Assembly (NCBI GenBank): GCA_030390025.1
Contig: CM059432.1
Coordinates: 96,288,001 to 96,352,000 of the forward strand
Origin: Squalus acanthias
Lineage: Eukaryota
DNA: 64,000 nt
Reading direction: 5' to 3'
Shown: piece after piece, positions 19,605 to 60,300 of the stretch
Layout: each line of letters opens with the position of its first letter
Numbering within the stretch: position 1 is the first letter of the stretch
Position numbers and translations under genes: made by a program
The notes under the pieces: generated by a model
Databases searched by the model: none
What the model was told of the DNA's origin: nothing
What the model saw: only the letters and a program-made list of their open reading frames with translations

Positions 19605-21468
19605 ATGGCTGATCCCACTTCCAGGGAGAGAGCTCACCGTTTCAGTGACCAGGCATTGGAAGCATTGGTCACAGCAGTCGAAAGAAGGAGGGCTGTGTTG
19701 TTCCTGGCCACTGGCAGGAGGCCATTGCCCCAGGTCTTCAGAGCAATGTGGAGCGAAGTGGCCCAGGACGTCTTGGCCAGCAGTGTGCTCCTCAGGACCC
19801 TCACACAGTGCCGTAAAAAATTCAACAACCTCACTCGGGTGGTCAGGGTGAGTACATGCTTCAACATGTCCTACATACCAGGATCTGAACCTCGGTCTGT
19901 ACACACTACACAAACCACCACACCCCCACCACTCACCCACCAAGCATCTCCATCTACTAAAATTCACATCCACATCTCACACCTTGCCTACAATCACAGC
20001 TATTCAACAGGCACATCTCCCAAACACACAGCTACACACTCACTCACACACTTTCCTTTCTCTTGCAGACCAAGCTGGCCCACAGTAGGAGGGAGCAGGA
20101 ACGAACAGGCTGGGGTGAAGCAGACATTCAACAGCTTACAGACCTGGAGGAGCGAGTGCTGAGAGTCATTGGGCAGCAGGTGGTGGGCGCCGTTGCCGTT
20201 GGCAATGTCGACCGACTTAGGGGCAACAACGGAATGTCCATCCCGTCTCCATCTGTCATCCCACTTCCCTGTCACACCACAAGCCTTTCCCACTTTCCAG
20301 CTCATTATACTGTCTGCATTCCTTGCTCCCTTCATGACCACTGCCCTCACCTTAACGTGAGTCATGTGCCTTTATGCTTTCAGATAATCAGCAACCAGCT
20401 GATAAGCCTGTCCCTGAGCCTCCCAGTGAGAGTGAGGCGGGAGAAGAGGAGGAGGAAGAAAGCACCGCGTCACTGCATGTCTCACCCACAGGCACCCACT
20501 CAGATACTGGCACTACACAATCTTTGGAGGCAAGTTTAGTAGAAGGGTCTGCACTGCATGATGCACTGGGGACAAGCGGGCTGCAGCAAGCCAGGGGGAA
20601 AGGGTAGCTTGGGAGCCAGCTCCCCGGAGGGCGAGTTCACGTGCGAGTTCTGCTGCACAGGACTCAGATGAGGACCTCGATAGGGAGGCATTCACAAGAA
20701 GGGTGATGGGCATGCACACCGAGATCATAGGTGCAATGGCAAGGGTGCCTGAGAGCCTGTTGGCAATGGTAAGGAGTGCGGAGGAGTCCGACTCCAACAT
20801 TGCACAGAGCTCTGCGCACACCATGGAGCCCATCCTTGGCAGTCTGCCAAGGATGGTGGACTCCCTGAGAGACCGTGTGGGGACCCAGACCTCATGCCGC
20901 ATGTCATGGGCGATGTAGCAACATCCATTGCAGCACAGACGGAAGCCACGCAACGTCTTAGTGCAGTAATGCAGTCAATGGTTGGTGGCATCGAGTCTCA
21001 GGCTGCTCTCATGCAGTCTCAGCTTGATGCCACGAAAGCTCTGACTACTGCCATCATCATTGGGTCCACCACAGTCCACCGGGGATCTCACAATGTCGCA
21101 GCAGGCCAGCAATCTGTGCTCCAGCAGATGGTTAGGGATGCTGAGGTGCTGCCCCGGGGAGCGGCAGTGGATCAGTGGAGCAGGTAGCTGCTCTCTCAGG
21201 ATGACAGCATTCCTGCTCCCACCACTGACACTCCGCCATTGCCCTTGTCGCTGCCTGTCATCCAGCCAGGCCAGACTGCTGCCGCACAGCCTGAGGAGGT
21301 GCAGTGAGTCGAGGGCGTCCTGCAAGGCCATCTGCAGTCTCTGGCACCGACACTCAGCAGCCTTCCAGCAGCCGTGCTGCAGCCACTGAGGACAGACTAC
21401 GTAGGAGCAGTAGATTAATAAAAGGCACTGTAAAGAGGGGAAGTAAGGGTTTGCACAAGGGTGATTAG
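19605..21468 (+). pseudogene. Harbinger Myb/SANT gene with three exons, decayed
   Basis: Exon 1 19605-19847 encodes RERAHRFSDQALEALV...W...QCRKKFNNL and ends at AGG|GTGAGT. The exon 2 donor is mutated (GAATGT) and exon 3 has frameshifts. Confidence 0.85.
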
Positions 21469-21626
21469 TTCATATTGTTGTTGTATATATGTGTTTACTG
21501 ATAAATTTATTAATTGAATTTTGCAGAATTTGTGGTGTCTCTCATTTCAGCTTTGTGCTATGATATAGCATGTGAAATGTTTGGAATGATGGGGATGTAG
21601 TGAGCAACATAGATCTGGGGTTTAAT

Positions 21627-24600: not shown

Positions 24601-25253
24601 GATTAATATGGGCATTGACGGTGAGGATTCTCTGTCTGTGGTCGCACACCAACTGGACATTAAGAGAGTGGTAGCCTTTGCGGTTACGTAAGACTTCAGG
24701 ATTGTTATGGGGTACCCGCAAAATGACATGGGTGCAGTCAATGGCGCCCTGCACCATGGGGAAGCCTGCTATCCTGGCAACGCCACATGCACGCTCGTCC
24801 TGCTTCTCTCTGGTGATGGGAAGGAAATGTAGTCCCTTCTCCTTCTGTAGAGAGCCTCTGTGACCTCCCGGATGCAGCAATGGACGGCAAACTGCGAGAT
24901 GTTAGCTATGTCTCCTGCTGTAGACTGGAACGATCCACTGGCATAGGAATTGAGGGCGATGGTGACCTTGACCTCCTGATCTGAGGCTCGAGGTCTGGCT
25001 GCAGGAGGTGGCAGAGTTCTGTGACCACCTCCTTGCTGAAGTGGAACCTTCTAAGACACTACTCCTCAGTTAAATTTATGTAGGAGAAGTGCTCCCGGAA
25101 TACCCTGGGAGGGTAAGGCCTCCTGTTGAGAGCCCTGTTGACCCTCCTCCCTCTGGCCACATTTTCCAATCTTTGTCTCTGCCTCCGCTGCCTCCGACGT
25201 TGATGCTGGAGTGCGGGGTTGAGTGCCAGTACGGCCCCCATTAATATAACCAA
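21627..25253 (-). pseudogene. Harbinger transposase, interrupted by a CR1 at about 22156-24616
   Basis: RRPYPPRVFRE, GAIDCTHV, RKGYHSLNVQLVCD, YPGSSHDAFIL and IEQTIGVLKQRF in order, with frameshifts. Confidence 0.88.
22156..24616 (-). mobile_element. 5'-truncated CR1 (HER1-like) LINE
   Basis: 476-aa RT ORF at 22251-23681, (TTCTTATG)n tail at 22156-22175, endonuclease remnant at about 24311-24616. Confidence 0.95.
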
Positions 25254-26609
25254 GTGTAGGACTTTGAAATCTTAGCAGAATGAAAGTGACAAATATTTAG
25301 CAGGCAGAACACTCCTGAAAGTAAGAAACGTTTAACTCACTGAAAACGGCTGTTTCGCGATGTGAAACTGAACAGGCAGCATTGATTGGCGACTAAACTG
25401 AAAGCGGATGTTGATCCCTTTAAATACCGCTCCTACAGCAGCCATCCGAATGTATAACGCCTCCTCTTCCTGCCGTTGTTCAGGCCAGGCGCTAAGGCAG
25501 GGGGCGACAGTGAATTTTGCGTCTGGGCCGTTAACGGGACGTTCTGCAATCATTGATGTCACGATCTGACAGGCGCTAAAGGCCTAGGCGTTAACTGTTA
25601 GCGCCAGCGCTAAATCCTGGGTGAATTTTGCGTGCGGCGTTGGATTCGCCGCGCCCCACCGCAAACCCATTAGCGCCCCCCCCCAACCCCCCGCCGGTGC
25701 TAACAGGAGGCGCTATCATGCCGAATTTCTCCCCCAATGTTTCTCATGCTGAACTACTCAAAAATGAGACAAAAGAGCATGTGATCAGTGGCTTTCCTGC
25801 TGTCAAACAAAAATACTGTATTCAACGCAAAACAGATTGATTTTCTCCATTTTGTTGATGTCACATCTCTGAAGATAATTTCACTTGATGACAGTAATTA
25901 GTGTCACTGTCCTGTTGTTTGCAGTAAAGAAAAGAATAGGGGAGAAATAGAAAGCAGTCGAAACTGGCAGCTGGCAAACCAGTTTGTTTTCTCCTGGCAC
26001 TGTTTATTTCCCTGAAGTATTACTTGACATTTCCAATTTAACCCTTAAAAATGGCTTACATACTATAGATTTGACATTCTAACATAGGATGCGATGTGTT
26101 ATCGTGTTATAAAAAGCCACTGGTAGAAGTTTCAGTAATTTTTCATATCGTTAATTATTAGAATCATTTACTTGGGATTTATGCAACTGGTATATTGATA
26201 TATTAGACACTAGTGATTAATTTAAATGACAAGAACTACCAAACTTGCTTAAGAGCTTTACCACATACAGTAACAGATGGTTGAGTTTGAAATTACCCAT
26301 TTCAAACAAATTATTGCACTATGGTTTATAACTGACAATAGTCATTTGAATTAAATCATCATTGCTTGTTTTTGAAACTTTTATAGTACTGTTTATTATC
26401 TAAATGGTAGGCATAATGAATACTTTAATTAAAATAATAATTAATTTTAAGGATTATATTTTAGGCATAGTAGTGATTGGTTAATGGATGTAAATGGTTT
26501 GATTGTCTATTTTTCACAATGTCAGTATTACAATGCCAATGCAAGGAGTTAAAGTGAATCCTGGGCCTAGAAATTGGATATGGCCCAAAAACAGCCGGTG
26601 TCATGGCCC

Positions 26610-31025: not shown

Positions 31026-32913
31026 GGACGTGTCTATTCGCAATACCAAAGTTCTGATTGGTCCTTTTGGATGACAAGACCTGATTGCTGATTTGTCCCC
31101 ATAGAGGACAAGACACACACAGCAGTTTCTCTGGAATGTGTAATTAGATCTTCCCTGCCTACGTAATCAATTACTTTGCAAAGTGTAATTCGAGCCATTC
31201 TGACTGCCTACTCCAGACAGAACAGAGCTCACTTAGAACAGACAGGGCTCACCCTCGTGGGTTAAGACCGTCTCTCACCCACAAACAAGTTCCTGCCGCC
31301 CTGCTTAAGTTCCTGACCTTCCCCTGCCCAAGTTCCTCCCCCTCTGGGTTCCTGACCTTCTCCCTCCAACAAGTTCCTGACCTTCCTTCACCGCCCCCAC
31401 CACCCCCATAGATGGGGCATTGTGCATGGGTCACGGATTGTTAACAGGTTTATTGGTTAGGAAGTGAATAGTGACAGCTTTCCGAGAAATCAACCAGGTC
31501 TCGGGGGAGGAGAGGGAGAATGTGGTGCGGGGGCAAAGGGGGTGGGGTTGGATTAACGTGATCTGTCTTACCAGCTGGATCACGTTCTCGCTCTCATCCC
31601 CACGCCCCCCCCGCCCACCCACACCCCCTTTGGACCTGGAACACATTCTTCCCACACCCCCACTGTGCCCTCCTTACTCCTCTTTACCCCCCACCCCCCG
31701 AGTTCTTGACCTTCTCTCCCGAGTTCCTGACCTCCTCTCCCCTCCCTTCCTCTCTCTCCCCTCCCTTCTTCTCTCTCCCCTCCTCTCTCTCTCCCCTCCT
31801 CTCTCTCTCCCCCTCCCCCTCTCCCCCCTCCTCTCTCTCTCTCGCCCTCCCGTCTCTCCCCCTCCTCTCTCTCTCTCTCCCCCTCCTCTCCCCTCCCCTC
31901 CTCTCTCACCCCTCCCTCCTCTCTCTCCCCCTCCTCTCCTCTCTCTCTCACCCCTCCCTTCCTCTCTCTCCCCCTCCTCTCTCTCGCTCTCTCGCCCTCC
32001 CGTCTCTCTCTCTCTCCCCCTCCTCTCCCCTCCCCTCCTCTCTCTCCCCTCCCTTCCTCTCTCTCCCCCTCCCCTCTCTCCCCCTCCTCTCTCTCTCCCC
32101 CCTCCTCTCTCTCCCCTCCCTTCCTCTCTCTCCCCCTCCTCTCTCTCCCCTCCCTTCCTCTCTCTCCCCCTCCTCTCCCCTCCCCTCCTCTCTCTCCCCT
32201 CCCCTGCTCTCTCTCCACCCCTCCTCTCTCTCTCCCCCCCTCCTCTCTCCCCCTTTCTCTCTCTCTCCCCTCCCGTTCGCTCTCCCCCCCCTCCGGTCCG
32301 CTCTCTCGCCTCTCCCTTGCTCTCTCACCCCTCCCCTCGCTCTCTCACCCTCCCCTCACTCTCTCTCCCCTCCCCTCACTCTCTCTCCCATCCTCTCTCT
32401 CTCCCCTCCGATTCCCTCTCTCTCTCTCTTCCCGCTGATCCCCTATCTCTCTCCCCTCCGATTCCCTCTCTCTCTCTCTCCCCTCCTCTCTCTTTCCCCT
32501 CCTCTCCCTCTCTCTCTCCCCTCCGATCCCCTATCTCTCTCTCACCTCTGTTCCCCTCTCTCTCTTTTCTCCGATCCCGTCTCGCTCCTGCCTCCAATTC
32601 CTTCGCTCTCTCTGAAGGCCGCAAAAATGTTCATGTAGATAATCACAGCGATATTCTAGGCAAAAGTCCTGGCGGCTTCTTTAGTATAGTCATTGATTTT
32701 CAAAGGAAAACCCAAAAGCCTTAGTAGCAGGCTCAGGCTCAAGCAGCAATGGCAGCAGCTCCAGGCTCGGCAATGTGGCTCGGCCCCACTTCCGGCTCCC
32801 TCATATATCATACTGCTCATGCGCGACCGGATCAAGTGCGCATGCGCAGTACCAAAGAGGCGTGCATGCGCAGAGGGAGTCAAAAAACGCCATGCAAATA
32901 ATCACTCCGTTAG
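31026..32913. mobile_element. Unclassified non-coding insertion (1.9 kb)
   Basis: Absent from Harbinger copies 1 and 3. Flanked by GTGAG direct repeats (31021-31025 and 32914-32918), extendable to TTAAGTGAG/TTAGGTGAG. Confidence 0.8.
31730..32610. repeat. C/T-rich low-complexity tract of about 880 bp
   Basis: Seen directly in the sequence. Confidence 0.95.
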
Positions 32914-34514
32914 GTGAGTGGTAGCCTTTGCAGTTACGGAAGATCGCAGGAGTGTTATGCAGCACCTGCAAAGCCACATGGGTGCAGTCGATGGCGCCCT
33001 GCACCATGGGGAAGCCTGCTCTCCTGGCAAAGCCACATGCACGCTTGTGCTGCTTCTCTCTGCTCAGAGAGAAGACAACGTAGTCCCTTCTCCTGCTGTA
33101 GAGAGCGTTTGTTACTTCCTAGATGCAGCGATGGATGGTGAACTGGGAGATGTTAGCTATGTCTCCTGCTGCAGACTGGAAGGATCCGCTGGTGAAGAAA
33201 TTGAGGGCCATGGTGACCTTAACTGCCACTGGGAGAGCCGTGTTCGCCCTGGTCTGAGGCTGCAGGTCTGGTTGCAGGAGGTGGCAGATTTCTGTGACCA
33301 CCTCCTTGGTGAAGCAAAGCCTCCGAATACACTGCTCCTCGCTTAAGTGGATATAAGAGAAGTGCTCTCTGAAGACCCTAGTTGGGTAAGACCTCCTGTT
33401 GAGAGCCCTCATGCTCCTTCTCCTCCCTCTGCACGCATCTTCTCCTCTACTTCGCTGCCTCCACTCCCTCTGACGAAGATCCTGGAGCGTGAGGGGGACT
33501 GCCAGTAGAGACCCCATGGCTGTGAGCAAGTGTTGTGAGCAGAAGCCTTTAAATAAGAATGAAGGTGTTCTCCACTTGCTCCAGCACTCCCTGTTACCAT
33601 AGAACCTTGCAATAAGTTAATAAAGCTGCTGGAGTTGCAGAAAGTTGCACAGAGCCAGTCAAACTACAGAATCATGTGAGGTGCAAGTTGTTGCTGATGA
33701 TCCCTTTAAATACCACTGCTGGAGCCTCCTTCCTGCTTGTCAATGCTTGCTCAGCTGTTTGCAGTTAAGGCATGCCGGTAAGTGAAGTGGCGAAGCTGAA
33801 AATCGCAGATCAGGCATCAAGTGAGCATTGCACGTTCACTGACGTCACGTTCTGCATAATCTCCATAATTTTTACGAGCGAGGACATCAGCAGTGCTGCC
33901 GCCCAGCCAAAAATGGCGGCCGCCCCGGGACCTGCCAGCAGTGGGCAGAAACATGGCGGCCGCCACTTTTTCCCTGAATCGGGTGGTAATGGCCTGCACT
34001 AAACTCCCGAATTTTTAGCCCCATGTCTTTTATATGCCCTAATAATAGTTCTGCTAGTCGGAGGGTTGATGACTATGGATTAACTGACATCTAGAGCAAT
34101 AAATAATGACATGGATGAAGAATTCCTAATTACATAAGAAATAGGAGCAGGAATAGGAGACTTACGGATTTTGGGTATAAGGAAAAAATGAAAAATTGTT
34201 ATCTCATTATTGGGAAACAAGCTGAAGCAACTTGGATGGACTGAATGGAACTTTCACGTTGTTTTAACTTGTAGAGTTGATTCGTGAAGTAGGTGAAAGG
34301 AGGGTTGTTTGATTTGCCAACCCAGGATACTCTCCTCACAGGAATGTAACACATAACTGGCACGAACAGTGAATGCTATCTTCAAAACCCAGATGACTTT
34401 GGGGTAGATACTAAAAATAGCTTGGAGCTGAAAAAAATCTGCCAAGGTAAAGCTACCAACTAGAATCTTATACCAAGTTAATGGGCAAAGTATGCATGTC
34501 ATTAAATGTTTCCT

Positions 34515-38144: not shown

Positions 38145-40885
38145 GCCCTTGCTGGTGCCACTCAGCCAGCCAGCCAAGACTGTTGCAGCCCATGCCAAGA
38201 TGCTGCAGTCTGTAGCTGGGCCCTTTAGGCCCAGAGCTGCTCAAGGTCATCCTCCAAGGCCATCTGAAGTGTCATCAATGAAAGCTCAGCAGCCTTTTAA
38301 AAAAATTAGTTTATAGGATGTGGGCGTTGCTGGCAAGGCCAGCATTTATTGCCCATCCCTAATTGCCCTTGAGAAGGTTGTGGTGAGTTGCCTTCTTGAA
38401 CCGCTGCAGTCCGTGTGGTGAAGGTACTCCCACAGTGCTGTTAGGGAGGGAGTTCCAGGATTTTGACCCAGCGATGATGAAGGATCATGGTGGGGAACTT
38501 GGAGGTGGTGGTGTTCCCATGCACCTGCTGTCCTTGTCCTTCTAGGTGGAAGACATCACGGGTTTGGGAGGTGCTGCCGAAGAAGCCGTGGCGAGTTGCT
38601 GCAGTGCATCTTGTAGATGGTACACAATGCAGCCACGGTGTGCCGGTGGTGGAGGGAGTGAATGTTTAAGATGGTGGATGGGGTGCCAATCAAGTGGGCT
38701 GCTGTGTCCTGGATGGTGTTGAGCTTCTTGAGTGTTGTTGGAGCTACACTCATCCAGGCAAGTGGAGAGTATTCCATCACACTCCTTACTTGTGCCTTGT
38801 AGATGATGGAAAGGCTTTGGGGAGTCAGGAGGTGAGACACTCGCCGCAGAATACCTAGAAATGGCCTTCAATCTCCCAAGCTGTAACCACTGAGGAAACA
38901 CTCTGTAGGAGCACCAGGATAGGAAAAGGAGCACACAATACAGGCACTAAGGGCCATAAGAGTGATTAGCCATTTTTTTGTCAATGTTGACATCATTTGA
39001 TAAATTTGTCTTTTATTCTGGATTTGGTGTTGGTATTTGTCTTCATAGTGAAGTGAGAGCAAGATCAATAAGTCTGGAGTGAAGGAAAGCAATTGGTGGT
39101 CGTCAGGAGAGTGGTAAGGATTGTAGAATTGTTGGTGAATGGGGAATGGGAGGGCTGATTTAGGTGAAGCACTCCTCGATGAGCTTGTCTCTGAGGGCTC
39201 GGGCAGATAGGAGCTCTGGTGGTTGCTGCCTCTCCTCCTCTTCCTTCTCCTCCTCCTGTACTGGTTGCTGCCCATGTGGTGGTAACGGCTGGTACTGCTG
39301 CCGGGATAGCGGGCACAGACCTGCATGATGCCCTCCGTGTAGTTGTAGACCAGCTATTCGTTGAAGGAGTGGAATCCCTTTCAATTGATAAAGATGCTAG
39401 TCTGGTGATAAGGAGAACGCAAGGCAATGTATGTGCAGTCAATGGAAAACTGCACCCCGGGGAAGCCTGCCATTCATGCAAAACCTAGTGCTCGCACGTG
39501 GAATTGTGTAGAGATCAGGGACAGACAGGATCAAGCTCGCCTGAAGATCCTCCGATGACCAAATAGCCTGCCAACACACACAATGTAGGCTCATACATGA
39601 AGAATAGTCACTTGGATCAGCTAAGAGAGGGGAGCTAGCATCTGTTGGTGTACTTTAGCATGAGTCAGTGTCTGCAGGAGTGAAGGGGAGAAAATTAGAA
39701 GGCAAAACAGAAAAAGAAAGCCTCCTGCTTCACACTCTCCACAGGGATGAAGATGCAAGCATTTCTCTTGGTGTAGAAAGCCTCAGTGACCTCCCTGTCA
39801 ATGTACTGCAATCTGTGGGATGTTGGTAATGTCACCTGCAGCCTGAAAGGAGCCTGTGGCAAAAAGGTTGAGGGCGACGGTGACCCTGACAACCACAGGC
39901 GGTGCTGTCCATCCCCTGGTTTGAGGTGAGTTGTGGCTGCAGGAGGTGATGTAGCTCAGTGACAGCCACCTTGATGAAGTGAAGGCACCTCATACATTTC
40001 TTTTCAGTAAAGCAGATGTAGGAGAGGTGTGCCCTGAATACCCTCTGTGGATATGGCCTCCTGTTCAGTGAGCTCCTCCTCCTCCCTCTTCTGGTAGCTG
40101 CTTTTGTTCTGTTGTGTCTTCGTTGCCCACGTCTTCCAGCCCCAAAGGCAGCCCTATCAGTCCACCCATTTCTGCAGCCAGTCTATTTCTGTGGCAAAGA
40201 GCAACAGCAGTGCAAGACCAGCAAAACCTCTCTGTGCAGAGAAAGTGAACTTTCTAGAGTGATAAAAATACCAAAAAAGCCCAGATGTCACGCAGCAACC
40301 AGAAATGATAAACCTGCAATTAACCTGTAAGTACTGCATGATTCCTTTAAATAGCCCTGGTGAGGGGGCCTTCTTGCTGGTTTGCGCCACATTTTGCTGT
40401 ACGAGGTCAACACGTAGCGAGTGAAGCACTGGGGCAATCAAAAATTGAACACGGCTCCTGCAAGAAGCAGAGGACCCTAATATACATTCATTATTCCTTA
40501 CTTTGAATGTTGCCGGTGTGCGTTCCTGCTGCCAGCCTGCACCTCCTATACCTCCTCTACCTGTATCTGTGCTGCAGGGTCTACAGACCACAGTGGATTT
40601 TTCATATAGGCAGTGCCTGTTGTTCCCTCTCCCTGACATCACAACAGAGATATACCAGCTGTTGGAACCTGACCCATAAAGGAGCAGTAGGATTTCAGTG
40701 GGATGCCCAGGAGTCAATGCTGGAATATCTCCTGCTATAATAATGCAGGAATTACAGTATCAATGCAAGGTAGTTAAATTCACAGAGGATACCAAGCTAT
40801 GGGAGATTGTAGATTTAGGGGAAGTTAAGATAGGGTCGTTTCTATAATGAACGGCCAATCCGCATCACCAGTTTTACACTCAGGC
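38145..40885. mobile_element. Old Harbinger remnant (Myb 3' end, transposase fragments, right end), interrupted by LINE and SINE pieces
   Basis: Similar to copies 1-3 at 38145-38300, 38865-39490 and 39715-40140 (ARYPGSS, acidic tail, RRPYP-like). TIR-like GAAAATCCACCCC near 40885. Confidence 0.6.
38305..38858 (-). mobile_element. 3' fragment of a CR1-group/Jockey-like LINE (same family as 53893-54517)
   Basis: IYKAQVRSVMEYSPLAW...LNIHSLHHR RT C-terminal motif. Confidence 0.8.
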
Positions 40886-41147
40886 GGCAAATTGAAAATC
40901 CACCCCAATATCCTTTAACTAGTAGATGAAATGCAAAAATTTCCCACTATACATCGTTTCAAATGACTCAATCGTACAGCCAAACTTTGTATTTGTATTG
41001 CTTACAAGATCACAATGAAAGGTTCCACAGCTATAGACCAAATATGTGCATATATGTTAACTGATACATTATTGAGCAATTTTACATGACCAGAGAAGTT
41101 GTTCAATATTAGATATAAGTCGGTATTATCTATAGTTGAAGACCAAA

Positions 41148-41580: not shown

Positions 41581-42471
41581 AAAACAGCTCGAAAAAACTA
41601 TTAGCAATTGAGATGGAGGGAGGGGAACAGCCATTTTGGTCTTAATTTTGCTTCTCAGTCAATATTTATGGTGGTAATTGAAGATGTCTGTTAGGACAAT
41701 GGTATAGTTAGGTCTGGATGATAAAGCTCTGTTGATGATATTTTACAAGTAGGTGAACAATTTCATAATCAGCAGAAGCTAAATTGTAGCAAAGGACCTT
41801 TTTCTCTTTGACAAATAATTCTGTTCAAAAAATGACCCTGCTTCATTCTAAATCTAACTGCAGACAGTAGCCAACCCATGCTTAAAATATAGGCAACACC
41901 ACGACCCTCTCCATCATAGTCTTAATAGAGTTCATAGTCAGGGGTGAGTATGGCATTTTTGGCTATCTGCTCCAATAAGAATATTGCAAAGCTAGCTTGT
42001 ATGTTCAAATAAGTTAGCTAGGTCCTTAGAGATTCTGCTCTTATTTGAATAGTTTCATTCAATCTTTTATGTCAACCTGAACAGGTAGATGGGCCCTTGG
42101 TTTAAAGTCCAAGGGGGAGAAATTCATTATAGCCCAGGAGTGGGCGCTAACTTTGGAAAAGTTTGAGATTTAGTGCCAGGTGCTAATGAATCTCGCTGCA
42201 CGCAAAATTTAGTGTCATCGCTCAAAGAATGGATTGGAGCGCTAAATCAAGCGCTAACGGCCTAACTCAGTGGCGTTGGACTCAAAATGCTAAACAATTT
42301 CAGGTGCAGTCTAATCACTAGTCATCATTGTCACAGGCTTTTTCCAGTTCTTAAAGGGGAGGCTCAATCATGCTGCAGAACCTCATTCTCAGCGTTGCTG
42401 GTTCTGCAGCTGTCTCAGCAAGCAGCAGAAGGCCAAGGAGAAGGAACTGGACCACTGAAGGAGGTGTCATT

Positions 42472-44378
42472 ATGGCAGATCAATGGCCCAGGGAGAGAGC
42501 CCGCAGATTCTGCCACCAAGCATTGGAGGCCTTGGTCTTCGCTGTGGAAAGACGGAGGGCGCTGCTGTACCCAGCAACTGGCAGGAGGCCCTCGCCGCAA
42601 GTCATCCGCACCATGTGGAGGGAGGTAGCCCAGCAGGTCTCGGGCAGCACTGTGGTCCCCAGGACCCCCACACAGTGCAGGGAGAAATTTAACAACCTCA
42701 CTCGGGTGGTCAGGGTGAGTCAAAGCTTCAACAAATGCTACATACCACCATCTGAACCACAGTCTGCACAAACTGCCCAAAGCACCACACCCTCAGCACT
42801 CACCCACCAACAATCTCCACCTACCAACACTCACACCCACATCTCACACCTTGCACACAATGAGAGCTATTCAACTATGGCAGGCATGTCACCCAAACAC
42901 ATTGCTCCACACTCACTCACACACTTTCCTTTCTCTTGCAGGCCAATGTTGCTCACAACAGGACGGAGCAGGAGCGCACAGGCGGGGGACAACCTGACAC
43001 CCAATCACTTTCTGAGCTGGAGGAAAGAGAGCTGCAAATCATTGGGTGCCAGGTGGTGGGCGCTGTGGCCACCGGCGACATTGACCCCCTTGGGGACAAC
43101 AACGGTATGTTCATCCCTACTCCTTCTTCTCACATCCCACTTCCCCCTCACCCCACAAGCCTTTCCCACTTTCCAGCTAATCATGCTATATGCATGTCTT
43201 TCTCTCTTTCTGCCCCCCTCCCCTCACCTTAACCCAACTCTTGTGCCTTTATGCCTTCAGATAATGAGCAAGCAGCTGAACAGCCTGTCCGTGAGGGCAC
43301 CGTAGAGAGCGAGGCGGGAGAAGAGGAGGACGAAGAACACACCGCGTCACTGCATGTCTCACCCACAGACACCAGCTCAGATACTGGCACTAGGCGTTCT
43401 TTAGAGACTGGTATAGTAGCGGGATCTGCACAGGGTGATGCACTGGGGACGAGTGGGCTGCAGCAAGGCCAGGGGGAAAGGGTAGCTCGGGAGCCAGCTT
43501 CCCGGAGGGCGAGTTCGCGCGCGGGTTCTGGTGCACAGAACTCAGATGAGGACCTCGATGGGGAGGCCATTAGAAGAAGGGTGATGGGCATGTAAACGGA
43601 GATGAAAGGTGCAATGGCAAGGGTGCCCGAGAGCCTCTCAGCAATGGTAAGGAGCGTGGAGGAGTCCGCCTCCAACATTGCACAGAGCTCTGCGCACACC
43701 ATGGAGCCCATCATTTGCAGTCTGAAAGGGATGGTGGTCTCCCAGAGAGACCGTGGCAACCCAGACCTCATGCCGCATGTGATGGCCGATGTCGCAGCTT
43801 CCATTGGAGCACAGACAGAAGCCACGCAACGTCTTAGTGCTGTAATGCAGTCTATGCTTGGTGCCATCGATTCTCAGACTGCTCTCCTGTAGTTTCAGCT
43901 TGATGCCAAGCAAGCTCTGACTGCTGCCATCGTGGCTGTGTCGACCACTGTCCACCGGAGCTTTCATGGTGTCGCAGCAGGCCAGCAATCTGTGCTCCAG
44001 CAGATTGGTAGTGATGCTGAGGTGCTGCCCCAAGGAAATGGCAGTGGGTCAGTGGAGCAAGAAGCTGCTGTCCTCGCTCATGATGACAGCATTCCTGCTC
44101 CCACCACTGGCACTCCGCCATTGTCCTTGTCGCTGCCCGTCATCCAGCCAGCCCAGACTGCTGCCGCCCATGCTGAAGTGATGCAGTCTACAGCTGGGCC
44201 TTCCAGGCCCAGAGCTGGTCGAGGGCATCTTGCAAGGCCATCTGAAGTCTCCCGCACGGACACTTAGCAGCCTTCCACCCGCCCTGCTGCAGCCACTGGG
44301 CCAACACTTCATAGGAGCACTAGAGTAGGCAAAGGCACAGTAACGACAGGCACTAAGAGATTTCACAAGGGTGAATAG
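42472..44378 (+). pseudogene. Harbinger Myb/SANT gene, copy 3 (splice sites intact, stops in exon 3)
   Basis: MADQWPRERARRFCHQALEALV...QCREKFNNL. Splice sites AGG|GTGAGT, TTGCAG|GCC, ACG|GTATGT and TTCAG|AT. In-frame TAA near 43593. Confidence 0.85.
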
Positions 44379-44543
44379 GTAATATTGTTGGTGTAAATAT
44401 GTGTTCGCTGATTATTGATAAATTTATTAATTGGCTTTGGATGATTTTGTGGTGTCTCTCATTTTAGCTTTGCGCTGTGATATGGCCTGAGACAGGGATG
44501 GAATGATAGGGATGTGGTGAGCAATGGGGATCTGGGGTTTAAT

Positions 44544-45273
44544 TTATTGAAACCGCAGTCCGATGAGGCGGTCATGGACCGGCCCTTCCAGAAGGCCGCT
44601 TGAGTGGCTGCCTCCTCCTTCGCTCCTGTTCCTCCTCCTCCTCATCTTCCTCTTACTCCTTGTCCTCGTCCTTGTACTCCTCCTCCTCTCCCTCTTTCTC
44701 CACCTGAGGTGGTCCCAAAATCCCTGGTGGCAAGGCTGGGCCCTCATGATGGCCAAGTTGTGAAGCATGCTGCAGACCATGACGAAATGGGACACCTGTT
44801 CAGCCGAGTACTGGAGGGCTCCTCCCGAGCTGTCAAGGTAGCGGAACCATTGGTTGAGCACCCCGATGGTCTGCTCGATGATGTTCCTGGTGGCAGCATG
44901 GCTCTCATTATATGAGTGCTGAGCATAGTGTTGGAGTTGTGGAGGGGAGTCATGAGCCAGGTGGCCAGCGGATAGCCCTTGTCTCCGACCAGCCAGCCGT
45001 GAGCTTGATGTGGTGGCTGCAAGAGTGCTGGCTCACCGGTCTGGCACAGGATGAAGGCATCGTGGCTGCTGCCAGGATAGCGGGCATTCATATTGAGGAT
45101 TCGCTATCTGTGGTCGCACACCAACTGCACATTAAGTGAGTGGTAGCCTTGATTGAGAGCCCTGATGGCCCTCCTCCTCCCTCTGGCCACATCTTGCAAT
45201 CTTTCTCGCTGCCTCCGCTCCCTTGCAGTAGATCATGGAGGGCGAGGTCGACTGCCAGTACAGCCCCCATTAA
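44544..45273 (-). pseudogene. Harbinger transposase, copy 3, with about 0.45 kb deleted at about 45151
   Basis: NARYPGSSHDAFIL...GDKGYPL is present. The GAIDCTH region is missing relative to copy 1. Confidence 0.85.
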
Positions 45274-45874
45274 TATTACGATGTGTAGCACTTTCAAATT
45301 TTGTCAGAATAAATGTAACAAATTTTTAGTAGCCACAACATTCCTGATACTAAAGAACCTTTAAATGACTGAATTAAACTCGTGCACAATCACAAACTGA
45401 CAAGGAAGCAGTGACACAGCACTAACCTGACAGCTGTGACTCATCCCTTTAAATATCACCCCTGGAGCCACCATACGCCTGCTTCATGCCTCCTCTTCCT
45501 GTCATTGTCAGGGTGAGGCTCGAAGGCAGGGGGCTATAATCAATTTGGCAGATCGGGCGCTCAGTGAGCGTTGCACACTCACTGATGTCACAATCTGCCT
45601 GGCACTAAAGCCCCAAGTGCTAACTGTTAGTGGCGGTGCTAAGGGGTGACTGGAGTTGATGTGTGGAGCTGGATTCGCCTCATTAGCGCCCCTTTACTGC
45701 CCCCGCCAGGCGCTAACAGGAGGCGCTAAGCAACTGAATTTCTCCCCCCAAAAGTCTGAATGCAGCAATGTGTCAGAGGGGAGGGAATGTTTAATATAAA
45801 GGTATTATTAGGCATAAAATGTTTCTTTTCCAATGTCTCCTAACATTTCCAGTGTTTCTAAAGTATGAAGTCTT

Positions 45875-47156: not shown

Positions 47157-48477
47157 CATATGTTTCTCATTGTTTATTGAGGAGCATTGCCTGAAAACGA
47201 AGCTGATGTCTCATGTTAACAATATAATGTTCTCTGTGTCCCGTTGTTATCATATTTTCATGACTCTCTGTTTAGCATCTGTTGCACAGGCCATGTATTT
47301 TTCACTAGTAGTAACAAGAATAATAGGTCCTGTCATCATTTGTTTTATCTTAACTTCTTTAAGACATTCCTTGTTATTAATCTTTTATTAGCCTCACGTT
47401 TACATCAGTTCTTTCTTTAGTAGGTTATATGATCTGTAAGATGATCTTTCCAAGTTGTGCTCTCCTTTGTTTTACCTCCTATCTAGTCCTGATTATAATC
47501 CAAGCTTTAACTGAGTGTTGCTTCATGTTTGCATCAATCTTGACATATATTTATCATTAAAACATTTTGTTCATTGTAAAGTTGAATATAATAAATTTAC
47601 CTAAAAAGGTCTCAGGCATGGGAAGCATTACTATCTTCCAAACTAATTTTTTGGCATTAGTGTAAAATATGCAAAATTACTTCTCATAATATAACAGTAT
47701 ACCATCAGCCTTTTCCAGCCTGCATTTTATAGTTTTCTAATAATTTTCTAAGCACAAGTTCATCCACAGGAATACTAAATCACTGTTGTAATGTAAAACT
47801 GGGAGAAGCTTCAATTGAGAGAGTAAAAGTACCAGAGACACAAACTGAATGTTTATACCATGCTTGTTTAAAGTTTCCTTTGTTGGTCTCCCTAGGAAAG
47901 AGGACAGAGAGATGAACTAACTCGAAACTTCTGGCAAGGTCATTCTATAAACAGGTGTGTAAAAGTGTCCTGGGAAGATGGTGAAGGGGAGAGGGATTCA
48001 TTTTCTTTACCTCCTTGTGTGAGAAGTATTAGGCCTCCACTTGTCACCACCCTACAATAGAACATGTGAGACTCGATTTAAACTCCGGACGGGAATCGTG
48101 CAGGCGGGGTGGGGTTGGGTGGGCAACAAAGCCCCCGACATTGTTGGTATGAGGCCCAGGCCACTTTAGCTACCTGGCCTCATTAACATTTGAAGGGTGG
48201 GATGGTGGGATGCCCTCCCAGTCGCCTGCAGAATCGGGCACCCCGCCCACGTGACCCGCACAATTTCCAGAGGTTCCCTGACTGTACTTAAAGCGGGATT
48301 ACATCTGCTATTTTTCAGTGAACAACTGCAGAGATGAGTCGAAAGGCTGTACCCCACTTTCCTGATTAATCTTGAGGCCCTAATAGTGAAAGTGAGGGCC
48401 AGGAGGGAGGTACGATTCCACAGCACCCGCAGGAACAACTCCATTCAGGAACACAGAAGAGACTTTTATTCCAATAA

Positions 48478-49810
48478 CAATAGAAAGTGCTGGAAACACA
48501 CAGCGTGAGGCAGCATCGACGAGAGGTAGCCTCAATGTAAGCTCGAGGAACAGCACCTCATCTTTCTATTAGGCACTTTATAGCCTTCTGGACTTAAAAT
48601 CGAGTTCAACAATTTCAGACTATAAATTGGCCCCTGTAGTTCTTTTTTTGTCTCTTGTTTCCTCACATGGTGGCTGTTAATGTTGCTGCCGTCATCATCC
48701 ACACATTGTCTAGAGCCATCTTTTGTTTCTTAACTTGTCCCATTACCTTTTGCCTTACACTATCACCCCTTTTGTCATTCAATCTCTCCTGCCTTCCATC
48801 CCATCACAGACCTTCCCTTTGTTTTTCCTCCCCTCCTCCCTGCCCCTGCTTAAAAATCTCTCCTCCCTAACCTTTTCCAGTTCTGACAAAGGGTTCGACC
48901 TGAAACGTTGGGCTGGATTTTGCCAATGGGGAGCTTTTGGAGGCGGGACTCCCACTTGTCGGGTTTCAGTCCCGCCTCCATCAACTTCTGGCCAACCCAT
49001 GCTATTTTCCCTTGATTGACCTTGTTAAGCCCACCCAGCGGGTTTAGCAGGCCAATTAAGGGAAAGCCGATTACAGAGAACGTCAACGTATGACGTTTCA
49101 TCTGTCAAAAATTTTTGACAGATGAATTGTCATCGTTTGACAGCTCTGTGAAACTGTCAAACACTGACATTCTCTGTAGTTTGATGAGTTCTTGAATTCA
49201 AGACTCATCAAACCTCTTTATTTAGCAGAAATTAAATGGTTGCTGCATTGGAGAATGCAGCGGCCATCTGTCATCTCTGCCGCGGAGGTGCGAGACTCTC
49301 CGCATACCCAACTCTTGAAGCCTGCAGGAAGAAACAAAGGTAAGTAAACTTTTTCTAACACTTTCCATTTACCTCACATACTCACCTCTCCACACTTGCA
49401 CCCATCACGCACCTTCACAGCGCACTTTTGCACCCCTCCGACCCCCGCAGACCCACTGCTCGCCTCGGTGACCCTGGCAGAGTTCGGAGCCTTTGGAAAG
49501 CCCGCACTTGTGTGGGCAAATTGGAGATAATCCTCTTATCTGCCTGTTAACTACCTGTTAGTAGGCAGATAAGTGGCACTAATCCCCTTCCCGCCTCCAA
49601 GGAGACTGGACCCGGCGCCAGTTGGCTACCAGCCTCCTGGCAAGATTGGCATTTTCCCGGCAGTCCCGCCTCCATACCCGCCTCCCCAGGGCTGGCAAGA
49701 TCACGCCTGTTGACTCTGTTTCTCCCCTCCTCGATGCTGCCTGACCTGCCGAGTGTTTCCAGCACTTTCTGTTGTTATTTCAGATTTCCAGCATCTGCAG
49801 TATTTTGCTA
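48478..49810 (+). mobile_element. Penelope-like element 3' fragment with a short 5' inversion, split by a MITE
   Basis: 14-bp TSD TTTTATTCCAATAA (48464-48477 and 49811-49824). Encodes KLEEQHLIFLLGTL..SGLKIEFNNF (GIY-YIG C-terminus) followed by the pLTR. Confidence 0.88.
48910..49708. mobile_element. Harbinger MITE inserted in a hammerhead motif
   Basis: TIRs GGGCTGGATTTTGCCA / AGGCGTGATCTTGCCA. TSD GTT (48907-48909 and 49709-49711). Confidence 0.85.
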
Positions 49811-49949
49811 TTTTATTCCAATAAGTCTGACTTGGAATTGACCTAGCTCCCATGACACTGAGCTAAACCCAGTTCGCAATATATTAGTGACATTTTAAAA
49901 CACCTATCTGTGAGTGACTTTCATCCAGCTAGCAAGACAAAAAACCTAA

Positions 49950-50680
49950 AAGAAAAGCAAAATACTATGGATGTTGGAAAACAGAAAATGCTGGAAATAC
50001 TCAGCAGGTCAGGCAGCAACTGTGAAGAGAGAAACAGAGTGAACGGGCTGAATTTTAACACGCAAAAATGGATGGGTTGGGTACGGGTCAGATGTTAACA
50101 TTTTTAAAATCTGAAACCCGACCCCAACCTGCCCACTTCCGGGTTTTACTGAGGCAGGACAAGGGGCGGGCAGACCTTGGGAAACCTGACAGCTGAAGTG
50201 AGGTGAGGACAGCTTCGGGGAGAAGGTAAGTGCCTTTACAGCACTGCTTGTGAGCCAGGAGGAGCAGGAGTGCTTCCCCCCGGCCTCCAAAGCTGCCACC
50301 ATAAACCCCCCTCCATACAAAGACCCCGGGGTCGGGGATCGGAGCCCCCCTCCCCCACTGGGATCGGACCACCCCCCTGGGATTGGACACCCCCCCCATC
50401 CCGGGGTCGGGAATCAGAACCTTCCCCGGGTCATGGACCAGACATACCAGGTCCTGCGGCCTGCTCCAGAGTCCTCCCCGCCCGATTGGAAGCCGAACCT
50501 GTCAATCAGGCTGACTTCCGGGCGGGGAACCTGTCTGGGCCAAAAGACGCACGCTGTGGAGTTAAAGCTGGGCAAAACTGGACTTCCAGGTTTCCCATTC
50601 GAAACTCCGCCCCCGCCTACGTAACTCGCCCCTGTTCATCTCCAGGCCAACGTTTCAGATCGATGACCTATTATCAGAAC
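49950..50680 (-). mobile_element. Penelope-like pLTR fragment split by a MITE
   Basis: Matches 10135-10268. AGAGTGAAC|...|AACGTTTCAG rejoins across the insertion. Confidence 0.85.
50045..50648. mobile_element. Harbinger MITE (different family) inserted in a hammerhead motif
   Basis: Ends GGGCTGAATTTTAACA / GGCCTGGAGATGAACA. TSD AAC (50042-50044 and 50649-50651). Confidence 0.8.
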
Positions 50681-50842
50681 AGATTCAGGTGAATTTGCTT
50701 TTGATATGTAACTGTCATTATCACCGAGATACACCAAATCATCTTTTGGTTGGTTTTCCAGCTAGCCTATTTCGGATTTAATGATATCAAGAAGATCCAG
50801 TTTTGAAATGTACACTCCAGTTTGAATTACTCCTGATCATTA

Positions 50843-51165: not shown

Positions 51166-51252
51166 TTGCTAAATGAGTTGATTTAGACAAGTAGGTCAGT
51201 ACTGAACTGGAGTAAAGTCCATACCAGATAAGAAGAACAGGTTTCCTTCCCT

Positions 51253-51371
51253 CTTCCCAGGCTCTTCCCAGTTCTGATGAAAGGTCATCGACCTGAAACG
51301 TCAACTCTCTTTCTCTCTCCACGGATGCTGCCTGGCCTGCTGAGTTTTTCCAGCGTTTTCTGTTGTTATTT
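51253..51371 (+). mobile_element. 119-bp Penelope-like pLTR insertion
   Basis: 14-bp TSD AGGTTTCCTTCCCT (51239-51252 and 51372-51385). Confidence 0.88.
51270..51306 (+). ncRNA. Minimal type I hammerhead ribozyme with canonical GUC site
   Basis: AGTT-CTGATGA-A-AGGTC-ATC-GACCT-GAAAC-GTC-AACT. Confidence 0.85.
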
Positions 51372-51986
51372 AGGTTTCCTTCCCTAACGGACATTAGTGA
51401 ACCAGTTTGGTGTTTATGACAATCCGACAGCTTCACTTGACTGATACCAGCTTCTTATTTCCAGCTTATTTCAACTGAATTCAAATTCTCAAACTGACAT
51501 GGTGAGATTTAAACTCACGTTGTCTGGATTACTAGTCCAGAAACCCAACCACTACACTACCTTGTGAGCATTTACCAGAGAACAACCAAGCAGGCATAAA
51601 TGCTGTCAAATGTGACAAGGTGCAGAATCTTTCAGAGAGCCAGAGTGTTTGACAGTTACTATGTGAGAAAGAGTAACAGTATAATGAGGACAAATTGTGC
51701 AAATGGAAAAAAAAATCCACAGCCAGCCATGTGAATTAAATACTTGAATGAAAAATATTCACAGGACTTAACTCTTGAGGACTAAGGGCCTTTTCAGCTT
51801 TCAAAATATACATCTCTTTTCATGTAGCCAATATCAAATTTTTTTGAGTCGGGCATGTTAAAGTGTTAAAGTTTCAGGGTGTTTGATTTACCAAAGACAC
51901 ATTTATCCATTCATGCTGTTTTGAGACAAAATTTTTAAAAATCCTGCAATATAATTAATTGTTTGATTTTGATGTTAAAAAAATAC

Positions 51987-56708: not shown

Positions 56709-57340
56709 ATGGCGGACACGAACGCAGTTTCCGTGAAACTGCCGGAGTTTTGGGAAAACCAGCCCGAAGCCTGGTTTCTCCAAGCTGAATCCTGCTTCGA
56801 GCTGCGAAACATCACCACAGATGGGACGCAGTACGACTACCTCGTCACATCACTCGGTAGCGCCACAGTTTCGAAGGTTTGGACAGCGCTGCAGAACCCA
56901 CCAGAGGAAGGCAGGTACGCACATCTGAAGACAGCGCTCCTTAAAAAATTTACGGCCTCGGCATATCAGCGAAACTGCCACCTCCTCGACCTTCCAGGCC
57001 TCGGTGATGCCTCACCGTCAGACTCCTCTCCCACATGCTCTCCCTCACTGACGAGAGCCCACCTGGATCCCTCTTCCGCACGCTGTTCATCCGCCAGCTC
57101 CCTCTCAGCATCTGCCCAGTGATCGTGGCGTCCGGCCTCACGAACCTGGAAGCCCTGGCTGATGAGGCCGACAAGCTGCTGTCCGCTCACGCCAGCCGCG
57201 ACGTCACTGGCCACCACGCAGACACAAGGGTCTGCCACCAGGCCCATGGGGCCTTCACACCCCACTAACCCAGGCCACTGTTACTACCACACACGGTTCG
57301 GCGCCAGGGCACAACGGTGCACACCTCCCTGCTCTTTCAA
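56709..57340 (+). pseudogene. gag: Gypsy gag, frameshifted
   Basis: VKLPEFWENQPEAWFLQAE N-terminus, and the CYYHTRFGARAQRCTPPC CHCC motif in a later frame. Confidence 0.85.
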
Positions 57341-60300
57341 GTCCGCCCCCGTACCAGCCCCCGCGATGGCCGTGGGCCACGCGGGCTCCCTGCTGTTCGT
57401 CACGGATGACAAAACCGGCCGCCGGTTCCTGTGCAACACTGGGGCTCAGCACAGCATCATCCCGGCCTCCTCCCTCGACATCCAAAAGGGTGAACGAGGA
57501 CCGGCGCTGGCTGCTGCTAACGGCTCGGAAATCCGGACGTATGGCACCCGGACAGTCACCCTTGACCTCGCTGGTCGCCGCTACCGATGGGAGTTCATCA
57601 CTGCCAAGGTGCTCTCCCCTCTCATCGGCGCAGATTTCCTGTGCGCCCACGGCCTACTGGTAGACATCCCCCGTCACCGCCTCGTGGACATGAACACCAT
57701 GTCCCCCATCCTGGGCGCCATGGCCCCCCGTCAACCCACCGACATGGCGTCACAGTGCCATGCCCGGGCCACGGATGACTACTCGGCACTCCTGGCCGAA
57801 TTCCCGGCCCTTACCAATCCGACCTTCTCCGCGGAGGCCGCCAAACACGGGGTGGAACACTTCATCCCCACCACAGGCCCCCCAGTGTACGCCCACGCCC
57901 ACAGGTTGGACCCGGCCAAACTGGAGATCGCGCGGACCGAGTTTGCCACCATGGAACAGCTCGGCATCATCCGCCGCTCCAACAGTCCCTGGGCCTCCCC
58001 ACTCCACATCGCCCCCAAACCAGGCAGAGGTTGGCGCCCCTGCGGGGATTACCGCCGCCTCAACGACGCCACCACCCCTGATCGGCACCCCGTGCCGCAC
58101 ATTCAGGACTGCTCGGCTAGACTAGCCGGCCGCTCAGTCTTTTCCAAGGTCGACCTGGTGCGCGGCTACCACCAAGTCCCCGTCCACCCCGCGGACATCC
58201 CCAAGACGGCCGTAATCACCCCCTTTGGCCTGTTCGAGTTCCTGCGGATGCCCTTCGGCCTCAAAAACGTGGCCCAGGCATTCCAACGGCTCATGGACTC
58301 GGTCCTTCGGGACCTGAAGTTCCTGTTCGTCTACCTGGATGACATCCTGGTAGCCAGTTCCTCCAAGCAGGAACACCTCGAACACCTTCGCATCCTGTTC
58401 GGGCGCCTCAGCGACCACGGGCTCATCCTCAGCCCAGACAAATGCCAGTTCGGCCTGGACAAGATCGACTTCCTCGGCCACCACATCACCCATGCTGGGG
58501 CCATTCCCCTGCCCACCAAGGTGCAGGCCGTCCAACAATTTCCCCGCCCCACCACCATCACAGGCCTCCAGGAGTTCCTCGGGATGGTGAATTTCTGTAA
58601 CCGCTTCATCCCCAAAATGGCGTCCCTCATGAGGCCCCTGTATGAAGCCCTCCGGGGCAGGAGCGGCAAGATGGCGGTCGAATGGACGGCAGACGCGTCC
58701 GCCGCCTTCGACTCCACCAAGACTGCGCTCGCCAACGCCACCCTGCTCGCGCACCCACGGCCCAATGCCAGGGTAGCGCTCACCACGGACGCCTCCGACC
58801 ATGCGGTCGGCACCGTGTATGAGCAGTGGGTCGACGGCGCCTGGCAACCACTTGCCTTCTTCAGCCGCCAACTACGCACCCCGGAGGTGAAGTACAGCAC
58901 CTTCGACCGCGAGCTCCTCGCGCTGTTCCTGGCAGTCCGCCATTTTCGGTTTTTGCTTGAGGGCCACCCCTTCACTGCGTTTGTCGACCACAAGCCCCTG
59001 ACATTCTCAATGGCAAAGACAACCGACCCCTGGTCCGCCAGGCAGCAGCGCCAGCTCGCGGCAGTGTCCGAGTTCACCAAGGACATCCAACACGTCTCCG
59101 GCCGAGACAATGTGGTAGCCGACTGCCTCTCCCGCCCCGCCATCCACGCCGCACACCTGGCAGTCGACTACGCTCAACTTGCAGCAGACCAGATCACCGA
59201 CCCTGATCTGCTCTCCGCACCCACCAACCTACCAGGGCTACGCCTGGCCGACGTCGCCTGTGGCACGACCGCAGTCACGGTCAAGTGCGACATATCCCTA
59301 TGTCAACCTCGGCCCGTCGTCCCAGCGTCCTGGCGCCGCCGGGTATTCGACATTCTCCACAACCTCTCCCACCCCGGCGCCCGCGCATCCATCAAATTGG
59401 TAGCCAACCGCTTCATCTGGCGTGGCCTTCGCAAGGATGTGCGTACTTGGGCCAACTCCTGCCTCGCCTGCCAACGGGCCGAGGTACAGCAACACATGAA
59501 AGCACCACTCGAGGAGTTTACCGTCCCCTCGCAGAGATTCGATCACATCCACGTGGACATCGTCGGGCCCCTGCCGCCGTCGCAAAGCCACACGCACTTG
59601 CTGACCATCGTTGACCGCACCACACATGGCCCGAGGCAATTCCACTGACCTCTACCACCACCGCCGACATCGCCAGAGCCTTCATCAGCACCTGGGTCGC
59701 ACGGTTCGGCGTCCCCTCCGACATGACGTCGGACAGAGGTCCGCAATTTACCTCTGAACTCTGGACCGCCGTCGCACGCAATCTCGGGGTGACCATTCAC
59801 CGCTCCACAGCGTACCACCCCCAAGCCAACGGACTGTGTGAGCGGTTCCACAGATCCTTGAAGGCATCTCTTCGAGCCAGCCTCCAGGACGGCGCTGGAC
59901 CGACCGACTTCCGTGGGTCCTCCTCGGCCTGCGCACTGCGTTTAAAGAAGACCTCCACGCATCGGCAGCAGAGCTCGTGTACGGTCAGCCGTTGCGCGTA
60001 CCCGGCGAGTTCCTGCCCACCGCCACGACACCCTGGTCAGCCGACCAGCAACGCCACGACTTCGCCTCACTGGCGCTGCAGTTCGCCCCGGTGCCCATTG
60101 CCCAACATGGCGAATCCACCTCACACGTCCCACTAAGCCTGCACCAGGCACGGTTCGTTTTCGTCCGGCACGACGCCCACCGCGGACCCCTTACACCCCC
60201 CGTACGACGGGCCCTACAAGGTGCTACAGGCTGGGGACAAATTTTTCACCCTGCAAGTGTGCGACAGGACCTAAAAAGTGTCTGTTGACCGACTCAAGCC

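Follow-up and report, generated by a model that had tools for sequence, protein, structure and literature searches.

Harbinger-type MITEs nest recurrently at the predicted hammerhead triplet of a Penelope-like element in Squalus acanthias

Harbinger-type MITEs of many families have inserted independently at one and the same triplet, the GTT of a predicted hammerhead motif in the terminal repeat of a Penelope-like element, and they very probably did so because the sequence around it, TGAAAC-GTT-AACTCT, fits the general 15-bp target of these transposons. The site is an ordinary nesting hot spot that arises from the extended Harbinger target, a new instance but no new homing system. In other words, an abundant repeat with a matching 15-mer becomes a nesting hot spot through a known Harbinger preference, and this is a quantified example. 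At the level of titles and abstracts, our literature search turned up no description of Harbingers inserted at Penelope hammerheads, although one may exist in subscription journals, Repbase or supplements.

We propose that the transposase would read two 6-bp half-sites, each with an A at -4 and a pyrimidine at -1 in mirrored arrangement, and would make a staggered cut of 3 bp. The conserved GAAAC box would serve as a good left half-site and the stem I arm as a fair right one, so that the duplication would fall on the NUH triplet by sequence coincidence. The Penelope element supplies more than 75,000 copies of the matching 15-mer. CpG decay of GTT to ATT in dead copies would make the site about tenfold better, with loss of the ACGU palindrome that the minimal ribozyme is thought to need.

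Two occupied motifs in one locus, their host and their occupants

The window, by which we mean the whole 64-kb stretch of DNA that was analysed, holds six copies of the hammerhead motif (10264-, 15272+, 48883+, 50677-, 51274+ and 63567-, the sign giving the strand), two of which are occupied. In copy A (+), CTGAAAC GTT is followed by an insert of 799 bp at 48910-49708 and then by GTT GACTCT; in copy B (-), read along the ribozyme strand, CTGAAAC GTT is followed by an insert of 604 bp at 50648-50045 and then by GTT CACTCT, the duplication reading AAC/AAC on the forward strand. The first-pass annotation had described two unrelated MITEs at the GTT of two Penelope hammerhead copies, and both the coordinates and the target site duplications (TSDs) that it claimed are correct; the longest alignment common to the interiors of MITE A and MITE B is at most 13 nt. 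The four empty copies read GAAAC GTT AACTCT (three) or GAAAC GTC AACTCT (one). The probability of at least two occupied copies in six is 0.007-0.05 at an occupancy of 2-6%, which is unremarkable in a window chosen after the fact.

Copy A stands head-to-head with an inverted stub (48473-48526, -), a short inverted copy of the 3' part of the Penelope terminal repeat that is found in the inverted repeats I5 and I13 and by blastn (48517-48473). A C-terminal remnant of the Penelope ORF, which covers where the GIY-YIG region ends and is interrupted by one stop, was recognised by translation at 48530-48625 (+). The minimal hammerhead motif of copy A spans 48879-48909 (+) and consists of the AGTT 5' arm of stem I, CTGACAA, a shortened stem II, GAAAC and GTT, this last being both the cleavage triplet and the left TSD (48907-48909). 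MITE A (48910-49708, no strand assigned) has Harbinger-type ends, one GGGCTGGATTTT and the other decayed; it matches locus L164 at 85% over 840 columns, and its family has many relatives among the fetched loci. The right TSD GTT (49709-49711) opens the 3' remainder of Penelope copy A (49709-49817, +). The 3' remainder of copy B occupies 49947-50044 (-) and includes the TSD AAC (50042-50044), MITE B (50045-50648, likewise without strand) has the ends GGGCTGAATTTT and GGCCTGGAGATG and an interior unrelated to that of MITE A, and a second TSD AAC (50649-50651) adjoins the hammerhead core of the 5'-truncated copy B, with its box CTGATAA (50649-50681, -). An empty neighbouring Penelope copy with a GTC triplet (51247-51379, +) serves for comparison. 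The catalytic box has G8 changed to A in both occupied copies (CTGACAA in A, CTGATAA in B), and both are therefore predicted to be dead regardless of the insertion.

The host element has the organisation of a Penelope-like (EN+) element, with a single ORF in which RT precedes GIY-YIG. An uninterrupted Penelope frame of 876 aa (L071:7158-9788, -) encodes RT and then GIY-YIG with a Cys-rich linker, and is followed by a GTC-type hammerhead; its Pfam matches, RVT_1 (E=2.1e-5) and GIY-YIG (E=3.4e-4), are both slightly below the gathering scores. The ORF remnant of copy A aligns with the end of this ORF over 95 nt at 86% identity, and the motif lies about 280 nt downstream of the ORF in L071 and in the window alike. 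A pLTR with the hammerhead motif and, as often in Penelope-like (EN+) elements, an inverted truncated copy is seen in copy A and its stub at 48473-48526. There are at least two Penelope subfamilies, GTC and GTT, and their 3' regions differ.

The predicted layout of the motif is CUGANGA, an unpaired A, a 5-bp helix II, GAAAC, GUU and a 4-bp helix I (AGUU/AACU). ACGU provides the palindrome 15.2-16.2 for helix III of a dimer, with a predicted -1.7 kcal/mol for the 4-bp self-duplex. Empty copies have the features of a minimal type I hammerhead, with a perfect core in 26 of 53. By the standard hammerhead numbering, cleavage presumably falls after GUU, and the duplicated triplet is then the NUH triplet. 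An Rfam scan of the 64-kb window gave no match to a hammerhead family; the assignment is a match by eye to the description of minimal hammerheads in PMC4209133, as given in the accessible parts of that paper. Metazoan Penelope-like elements carry minimal type I hammerheads in their pLTRs (Cervera and De la Pena 2014, PMC4209133). In the same parts of that paper, these hammerheads share with our motif the CUGANGA box, the unpaired nucleotide before helix II, GAAA, a palindromic 15.2-16.2 without loop 3 (ACGU), the 4-bp helix I, and the location in a repeat behind an ORF with RT and GIY-YIG. The first pair of helix II is A-U or G-U in the motif predicted here, whereas the published hammerheads usually have G10.1-C11.1. 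The accessible text of PMC4209133 makes no mention of DNA transposon insertion at the hammerhead site.

The inserts have 3-bp TSDs and terminal repeats that begin with GG. Their decayed inverted-repeat ends agree at 11 of 15 positions in MITE A and at 7 of 12 in MITE B, and the ends match in intact relatives. Short terminal inverted repeats and putatively noncoding interiors characterise them as MITEs, and open frames overlie MITE B. Identical 3-bp TSDs flank 26 of the 32 paired ribozyme-site insertions, among pairs that were selected with at most one mismatch. The transposase-bearing Harbinger at 3382-6506 (ends GGCCCAAAAATT and GGGCCAGAAATT, TSD AAT) ties the end type GGSCCARAAATT, which is related to the MITE ends, to DDE_Tnp_4 (E=3.6e-26), and a decayed two-gene Harbinger at 42113-45748 (ends GGGGGAGAAATT, TSD CAA) retains remnants of Myb/SANT (Myb E=8e-6) and DDE_Tnp_4 (E=1.2e-8), with an end type, GGGGGAGAAATT, that is also related to the MITE ends. 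No transposase-bearing element with exact GGGCTGRATTTT ends was found within the 64-kb window, and we infer the link of that exact end to a transposase. Decayed two-gene Harbingers with DDE_Tnp_4 and Myb/SANT remnants form a dense cluster in the window (3382-6506, 19518-22285, 24311-25735, 32894-33616, 39312-40906 and 42113-45748), and a 21-bp tandem array (about 25 overlapping matches, 18830-19600) lies just ahead of a Myb/SANT frame.

The narrow PIF/Harbinger group of Han et al. 2015, as the accessible part of that paper defines it, has a TWA TSD (PMC4482050). TWA is not the rule in our elements, with TAA/TTA at 8 of 79 sites; because their TSDs are variable A/T-rich triplets, they are assigned to the superfamily PIF/Harbinger only, outside the narrow group. 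For the elephant shark no Harbinger was reported, and the accessible text of that report urges the examination of other cartilaginous fish (PMC9179366).

Two further features of the window were recorded. A near-perfect hairpin with 87-bp arms and a central CTGACGAAG box (17839-18035) sits in a LINE and is possibly an inverted pair of another Penelope-type end; its Rfam match to MIR821 falls far short of the gathering score and is probably due to the hairpin alone. An open frame of 841 aa at 57123-59648 (+), with RT, RNase H and integrase zinc-finger matches and repeated ends on its flanks, is an LTR-retrotransposon-like element.

The genome-wide peak and the 15-bp target

Across the 3.71-Gb genome, ACCTGAAAC followed by a MITE-type end within 12 nt gave 1,885 matches, compared with 3 for the reversed control, and the gap was 3 nt in 90 of the 100 matches listed. 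Most of the 30 loci fetched from this junction search are Penelope copies with varied MITE families, and two (L006, L008) clearly are not. When the search was anchored upstream of the core, about 96 of the 100 junctions listed (212 in total) that lay within 30 nt were at the triplet, copies with small indels being counted. The 30 nt downstream of the triplet held 27 junctions: 15 at +6, 10 at +8 and 2 elsewhere. The end type GGGCTGGATTTT alone accounts for 589 junctions against 75,863 empty exact sites, so that occupancy is 0.6-0.8% for this end type, and it is about 2% for all strictly matching ends. Genome-wide, at least many hundreds of Harbinger insertions lie at the hammerhead triplet.

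The peak at the triplet is thus real and not due to chance. When the 32 paired ribozyme-site insertions are clustered in the same orientation, 31 clusters result at 95% identity, 30 at 90% and 16 at 80%; the insertions are independent events that involve many MITE families. On both counts the first-pass annotation, which had taken the window pair for independent events at the same 3 bp and the ribozyme core for a recurrent landing site of Harbingers, is borne out. A canonical TTA/TAA duplication inside GTTAAC was considered and rejected: paired ends give GTT or ATT, and the +2 junction occurs once among the 100 listed. At L283:1287-1358, a head-to-head Penelope pair carries different MITEs at both hammerhead triplets, which are 48 bp apart (ATT and GTT sides).

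The general target was derived from four sources: 10-kb stretches at even spacing (120 of them), 70 loci chosen because they lie at or near MITE ends, the loci that had been targeted for Penelope, and the window. Both ends could be paired for 148 elements, and the 99 that lie off the Penelope site gave 79 distinct sites, unpaired or decayed ends being left out. In the symmetrised profile, position -4 is A in 126 of 158 half-sites and position -1 is C or T in 152; positions -5 and -6 are purines, and the TSD is rich in A/T. AAT/ATT, ATA/TAT, TAA and AAA are the most frequent central triplets, and the best letters overall are AGACAC-AAT-GTGTCT. This matrix gives the Penelope GTT site a score of 102x the genome mean, at the 52nd percentile of real insertion sites (leave-one-out), and its ATT variant one of 1,237x. 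The share of the 30-nt core window that the matrix predicts for the triplet is 97%, or 96% with the background-corrected fit, and about 96 of the 100 junctions listed were observed there; the best downstream sites by the matrix are +8 and +6, which were used by 10 and 15 of the 27 junctions. A background-normalised fit left the picture unchanged.

A target of this kind has been reported for Harbinger3_DR of zebrafish (AAACACCWGGTCTTT; PMC3016246, in its accessible part). As described there, both systems have a 3-bp TSD within a 15-bp palindromic target, and the outer half-sites are near-identical (AAACAC in Harbinger3_DR, AGACAC as best letters here), whereas the central triplet is variable and A/T-rich here and CWG in Harbinger3_DR. 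Unlike the Harbinger3_DR entry, the preference described here is common to many MITE families, with family-specific shifts.

The state of the CpG at the triplet bears on this reading. The change from GTT to ATT raises the matrix score about 10- to 12-fold, and the predicted self-duplex of ACAU stands at +3.4 kcal/mol compared with -1.7 for ACGU. Among 100 empty sites listed, 9 have ATT and 84 GTT. ATT is present in 35 of the 90 occupied junctions listed (GTT in 35), an odds ratio of 9.3 (35:35 vs 9:84), and in 34 of the 100 occupied GGGCTGGATTTT junctions listed (GTT in 49), an odds ratio of 6.5 (34:49 vs 9:84), the two lists of occupied sites overlapping in part; the preference for ATT over GTT that the matrix predicts is 12 (7-29) or 10 (5-17). 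The TSDs of the 32 paired insertions are ATT/ATT in 11, ATT/GTT in none, GTT/ATT in 3, GTT/GTT in 15 and other in 3, which shows that ATT is mostly older than the insertion. Occupied copies look older than empty ones, with the stem II CpG decayed in 13 of 50 occupied and 4 of 45 empty copies (p=0.03). Age therefore confounds part of the ATT bias, and the odds ratio is somewhat inflated; the CA-vs-TG asymmetry by itself is non-significant (16:3 vs 4:3, p=0.29).

CpG decay in dead copies thus creates better targets, and the hundreds of insertions in one constant context amount to a natural mutational scan of Harbinger target recognition, with uses in repeat annotation and in the dating of families by nesting.

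The same target accounts for sites outside the ribozyme. The strongest hot spot that we found is a coding site of a LINE which, from its translated motif, we take to be of a CR1-like family; a Harbinger-type MITE is present in 29 of the 100 copies listed (of 9,132 matches; for example L197, L215 and L057), and the GGGCTGGATTTT end type has 980 junctions there. Its occupancy is about 13-16x that of the Penelope ribozyme site, and its enrichment, about 10,000x, lies within about 1.6-fold of the predicted 6,400-13,600x. About 14 of 100 copies listed are without two bases at the central triplet, gaps for which excision footprints, slippage and a subfamily variant are candidate causes. Three further LINE coding positions recur among the paired insertions. 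In the Penelope element itself, the top site of the matrix lies outside the ribozyme, 148 nt upstream, and has a peak of 277 matches with at least 51 distinct TAA loci; per copy it is used at about 0.35-0.4 of the rate of the ribozyme site (small denominators, 10 vs 40 copies), and the mix of MITE families differs between the two sites. The matrix predicts a further site at -215.

Height of the peak and effect on the ribozyme

The first-pass annotation had named a coincidental match to the Harbinger target consensus as the simpler explanation. This match explains where the peak lies, which sites come next, why ATT is favoured and why the hot spot in a CR1 LINE is stronger, but not the full height of the peak (about 4-5x the pooled matrix); prediction by the general matrix, which that annotation had set against its own reading, was found for position but not for the whole of the height. 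The GGGCTGGATTTT end type is enriched at the ribozyme site about 650-800x over the genome mean, compared with a predicted 184x (102-328) or 145x (98-228). Occupancy of the ribozyme site is about 4-5x the prediction of the pooled matrix, and that of neighbours in the element about 1.4-3x; since the neighbours exceed their prediction to this extent and the CR1 site is near its own, the excess specific to the triplet is about 2x.

The base rate behind these ratios is uncertain: the approximately 71,500 ends are 55,777 matches corrected by an assumed 0.78 for the last letter of the pattern, and the density of ends in the sample, 43 per 1.2 Mb, is about twice the genome average. At the start of contig 1, about 13 of the 100 GGGCTGGATTTT ends listed have one identical flank (L111-L115, L125, L126, L133, L134). 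These are probably a repeated unit with an end and not separate insertions, by which the base rate would be inflated.

Two sources of the excess were tried and rejected, namely a CpG-poor background, as the background-normalised fit left the gap open, and half-sites stronger than the matrix, for which direct counts went the opposite way. Outside the exact Penelope context, the half-sites were counted 147 and 128 times compared with 15.4 and 14.2 expected without preference, partly in mutated Penelope copies. These counts are lower than the matrix predicts, which speaks against a purely multiplicative account, and the gap is wider under a multiplicative model; it is wider also because occupied copies are older and the copies at risk are thus fewer than counted.

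A property of the Penelope terminal repeat could add a further 2-5x to a position that the 15-bp match fixes, although we hold this to be unlikely. Such a property might be, and the same estimate covers all of these candidates jointly, the open chromatin of a germ-line promoter-like region, the inverted repeat of the adjacent stem II, an influence of flanking sequence more than 6 bp away, or the likeness of TCCAG motifs to the MITE terminus, through which a Myb-like subunit might be drawn in. It would agree with the roughly 4-5x left over at the site and the 1.4-3x left over at the in-element neighbours, with the double occupancy in the window and in L283, and with the promoter that has been proposed in the pLTR (PMC11167929, accessible part). 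However, the matrix comprises 79 sites, and the observed site-to-neighbour ratios, about 40 and about 60, lie within their bootstrap ranges (5-71 and 6-79); the differing family mix of the ribozyme and -148 sites moreover means that the pooled matrix is known to be blunt. We conjecture that the excess likely stems from this bluntness (family-specific preferences and dependent positions), from regional co-occurrence or age effects, and from promoter chromatin.

Insertion displaces the native 3' arm of helix I at the DNA level, as implied by the earlier statement that the core is separated from stem I. At the RNA level that statement is weakened: for the commonest MITE end, GGGCUGGA, a one-bulge helix with the 5' arm UCCAGUU is predicted, at -4.2 kcal/mol in register compared with -0.1 for the native arm, a pairing that was spotted after the fact and that in the window would meet two mutated cores. 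Among random 12-mers, 15 of 3,000 pair as well as GGGCUGGA, and the other end types mostly do not pair. We saw no sign of selection for an end that restores stem I, the share of GGGCTGGATTTT among matches listed being 32 of 90 at the ribozyme, 9 of 29 at CR1 and about one third at -148. It is very unlikely that the Penelope repeat draws Harbingers several-fold beyond the 15-bp match and that, in addition, GGGCUGGA restores helix I, in a longer form with one bulge, in chimeric hammerheads. If this were true, such hammerheads could be encoded at hundreds of loci and would cleave the transcripts precisely where the MITE begins. A several-fold excess or a chimeric ribozyme, either of them if true, would point to a DNA transposon and a retroelement interacting in a new way.

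Homing and duplication as alternatives

Dada DNA transposons (snRNA and tRNA genes) and R2 (rDNA) are target-specific "safe-harbour" elements. As in the present case, they insert again and again at a single exact position within a multicopy sequence that encodes RNA. However, most copies of a Dada or R2 family lie in the target, whereas about 1-2% of the Harbingers do so here and the site follows the general consensus of the family; we did not find most insertions in one target beyond that consensus, as a safe harbour would have it. The share of GGGCTGGATTTT ends at the ribozyme site is about 1.6% (2 x 589 of about 71,500). Loci that had not been selected for Penelope gave 88 distinct elements; none of these sits at the ribozyme, whereas 20 fall in five other repeat hot spots; a looser search of the 1.2-Mb even sample gave three probable ribozyme-site junctions (L051, L109, L242).

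It is highly improbable that Harbingers have evolved to seek out the hammerhead core for use as a multicopy safe harbour, which was the main proposal of the first-pass annotation, or that the host or the element gains from disabling the ribozyme. A peak so sharp and exactly on the cleavage triplet, at a site used by many MITE families, is what such homing would produce, but it would not lead us to expect the small share of ends at the site or its absence among unselected elements. Nor would it explain why copies with the palindrome broken by ATT are favoured about 6- to 9-fold, why the CR1 coding site is far more heavily used, or why both window copies carry G8 to A. Nor are occupied copies richer in intact cores (20 of 54) than empty ones (26 of 53).

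The idea that retrotransposition or segmental duplication spread one or a few Penelope composites that already bore a MITE, and that the junctions are their copies, is barely credible, as the few duplicates seen (L014/L015 with common flanks; L284, a local duplication at 94% over 751 bp) stand against 31 clusters from 32 insertions, differing end types, lengths and host subfamily variants, and the unrelated MITEs of the window; for the window pair and most of the sample such an origin is refuted.
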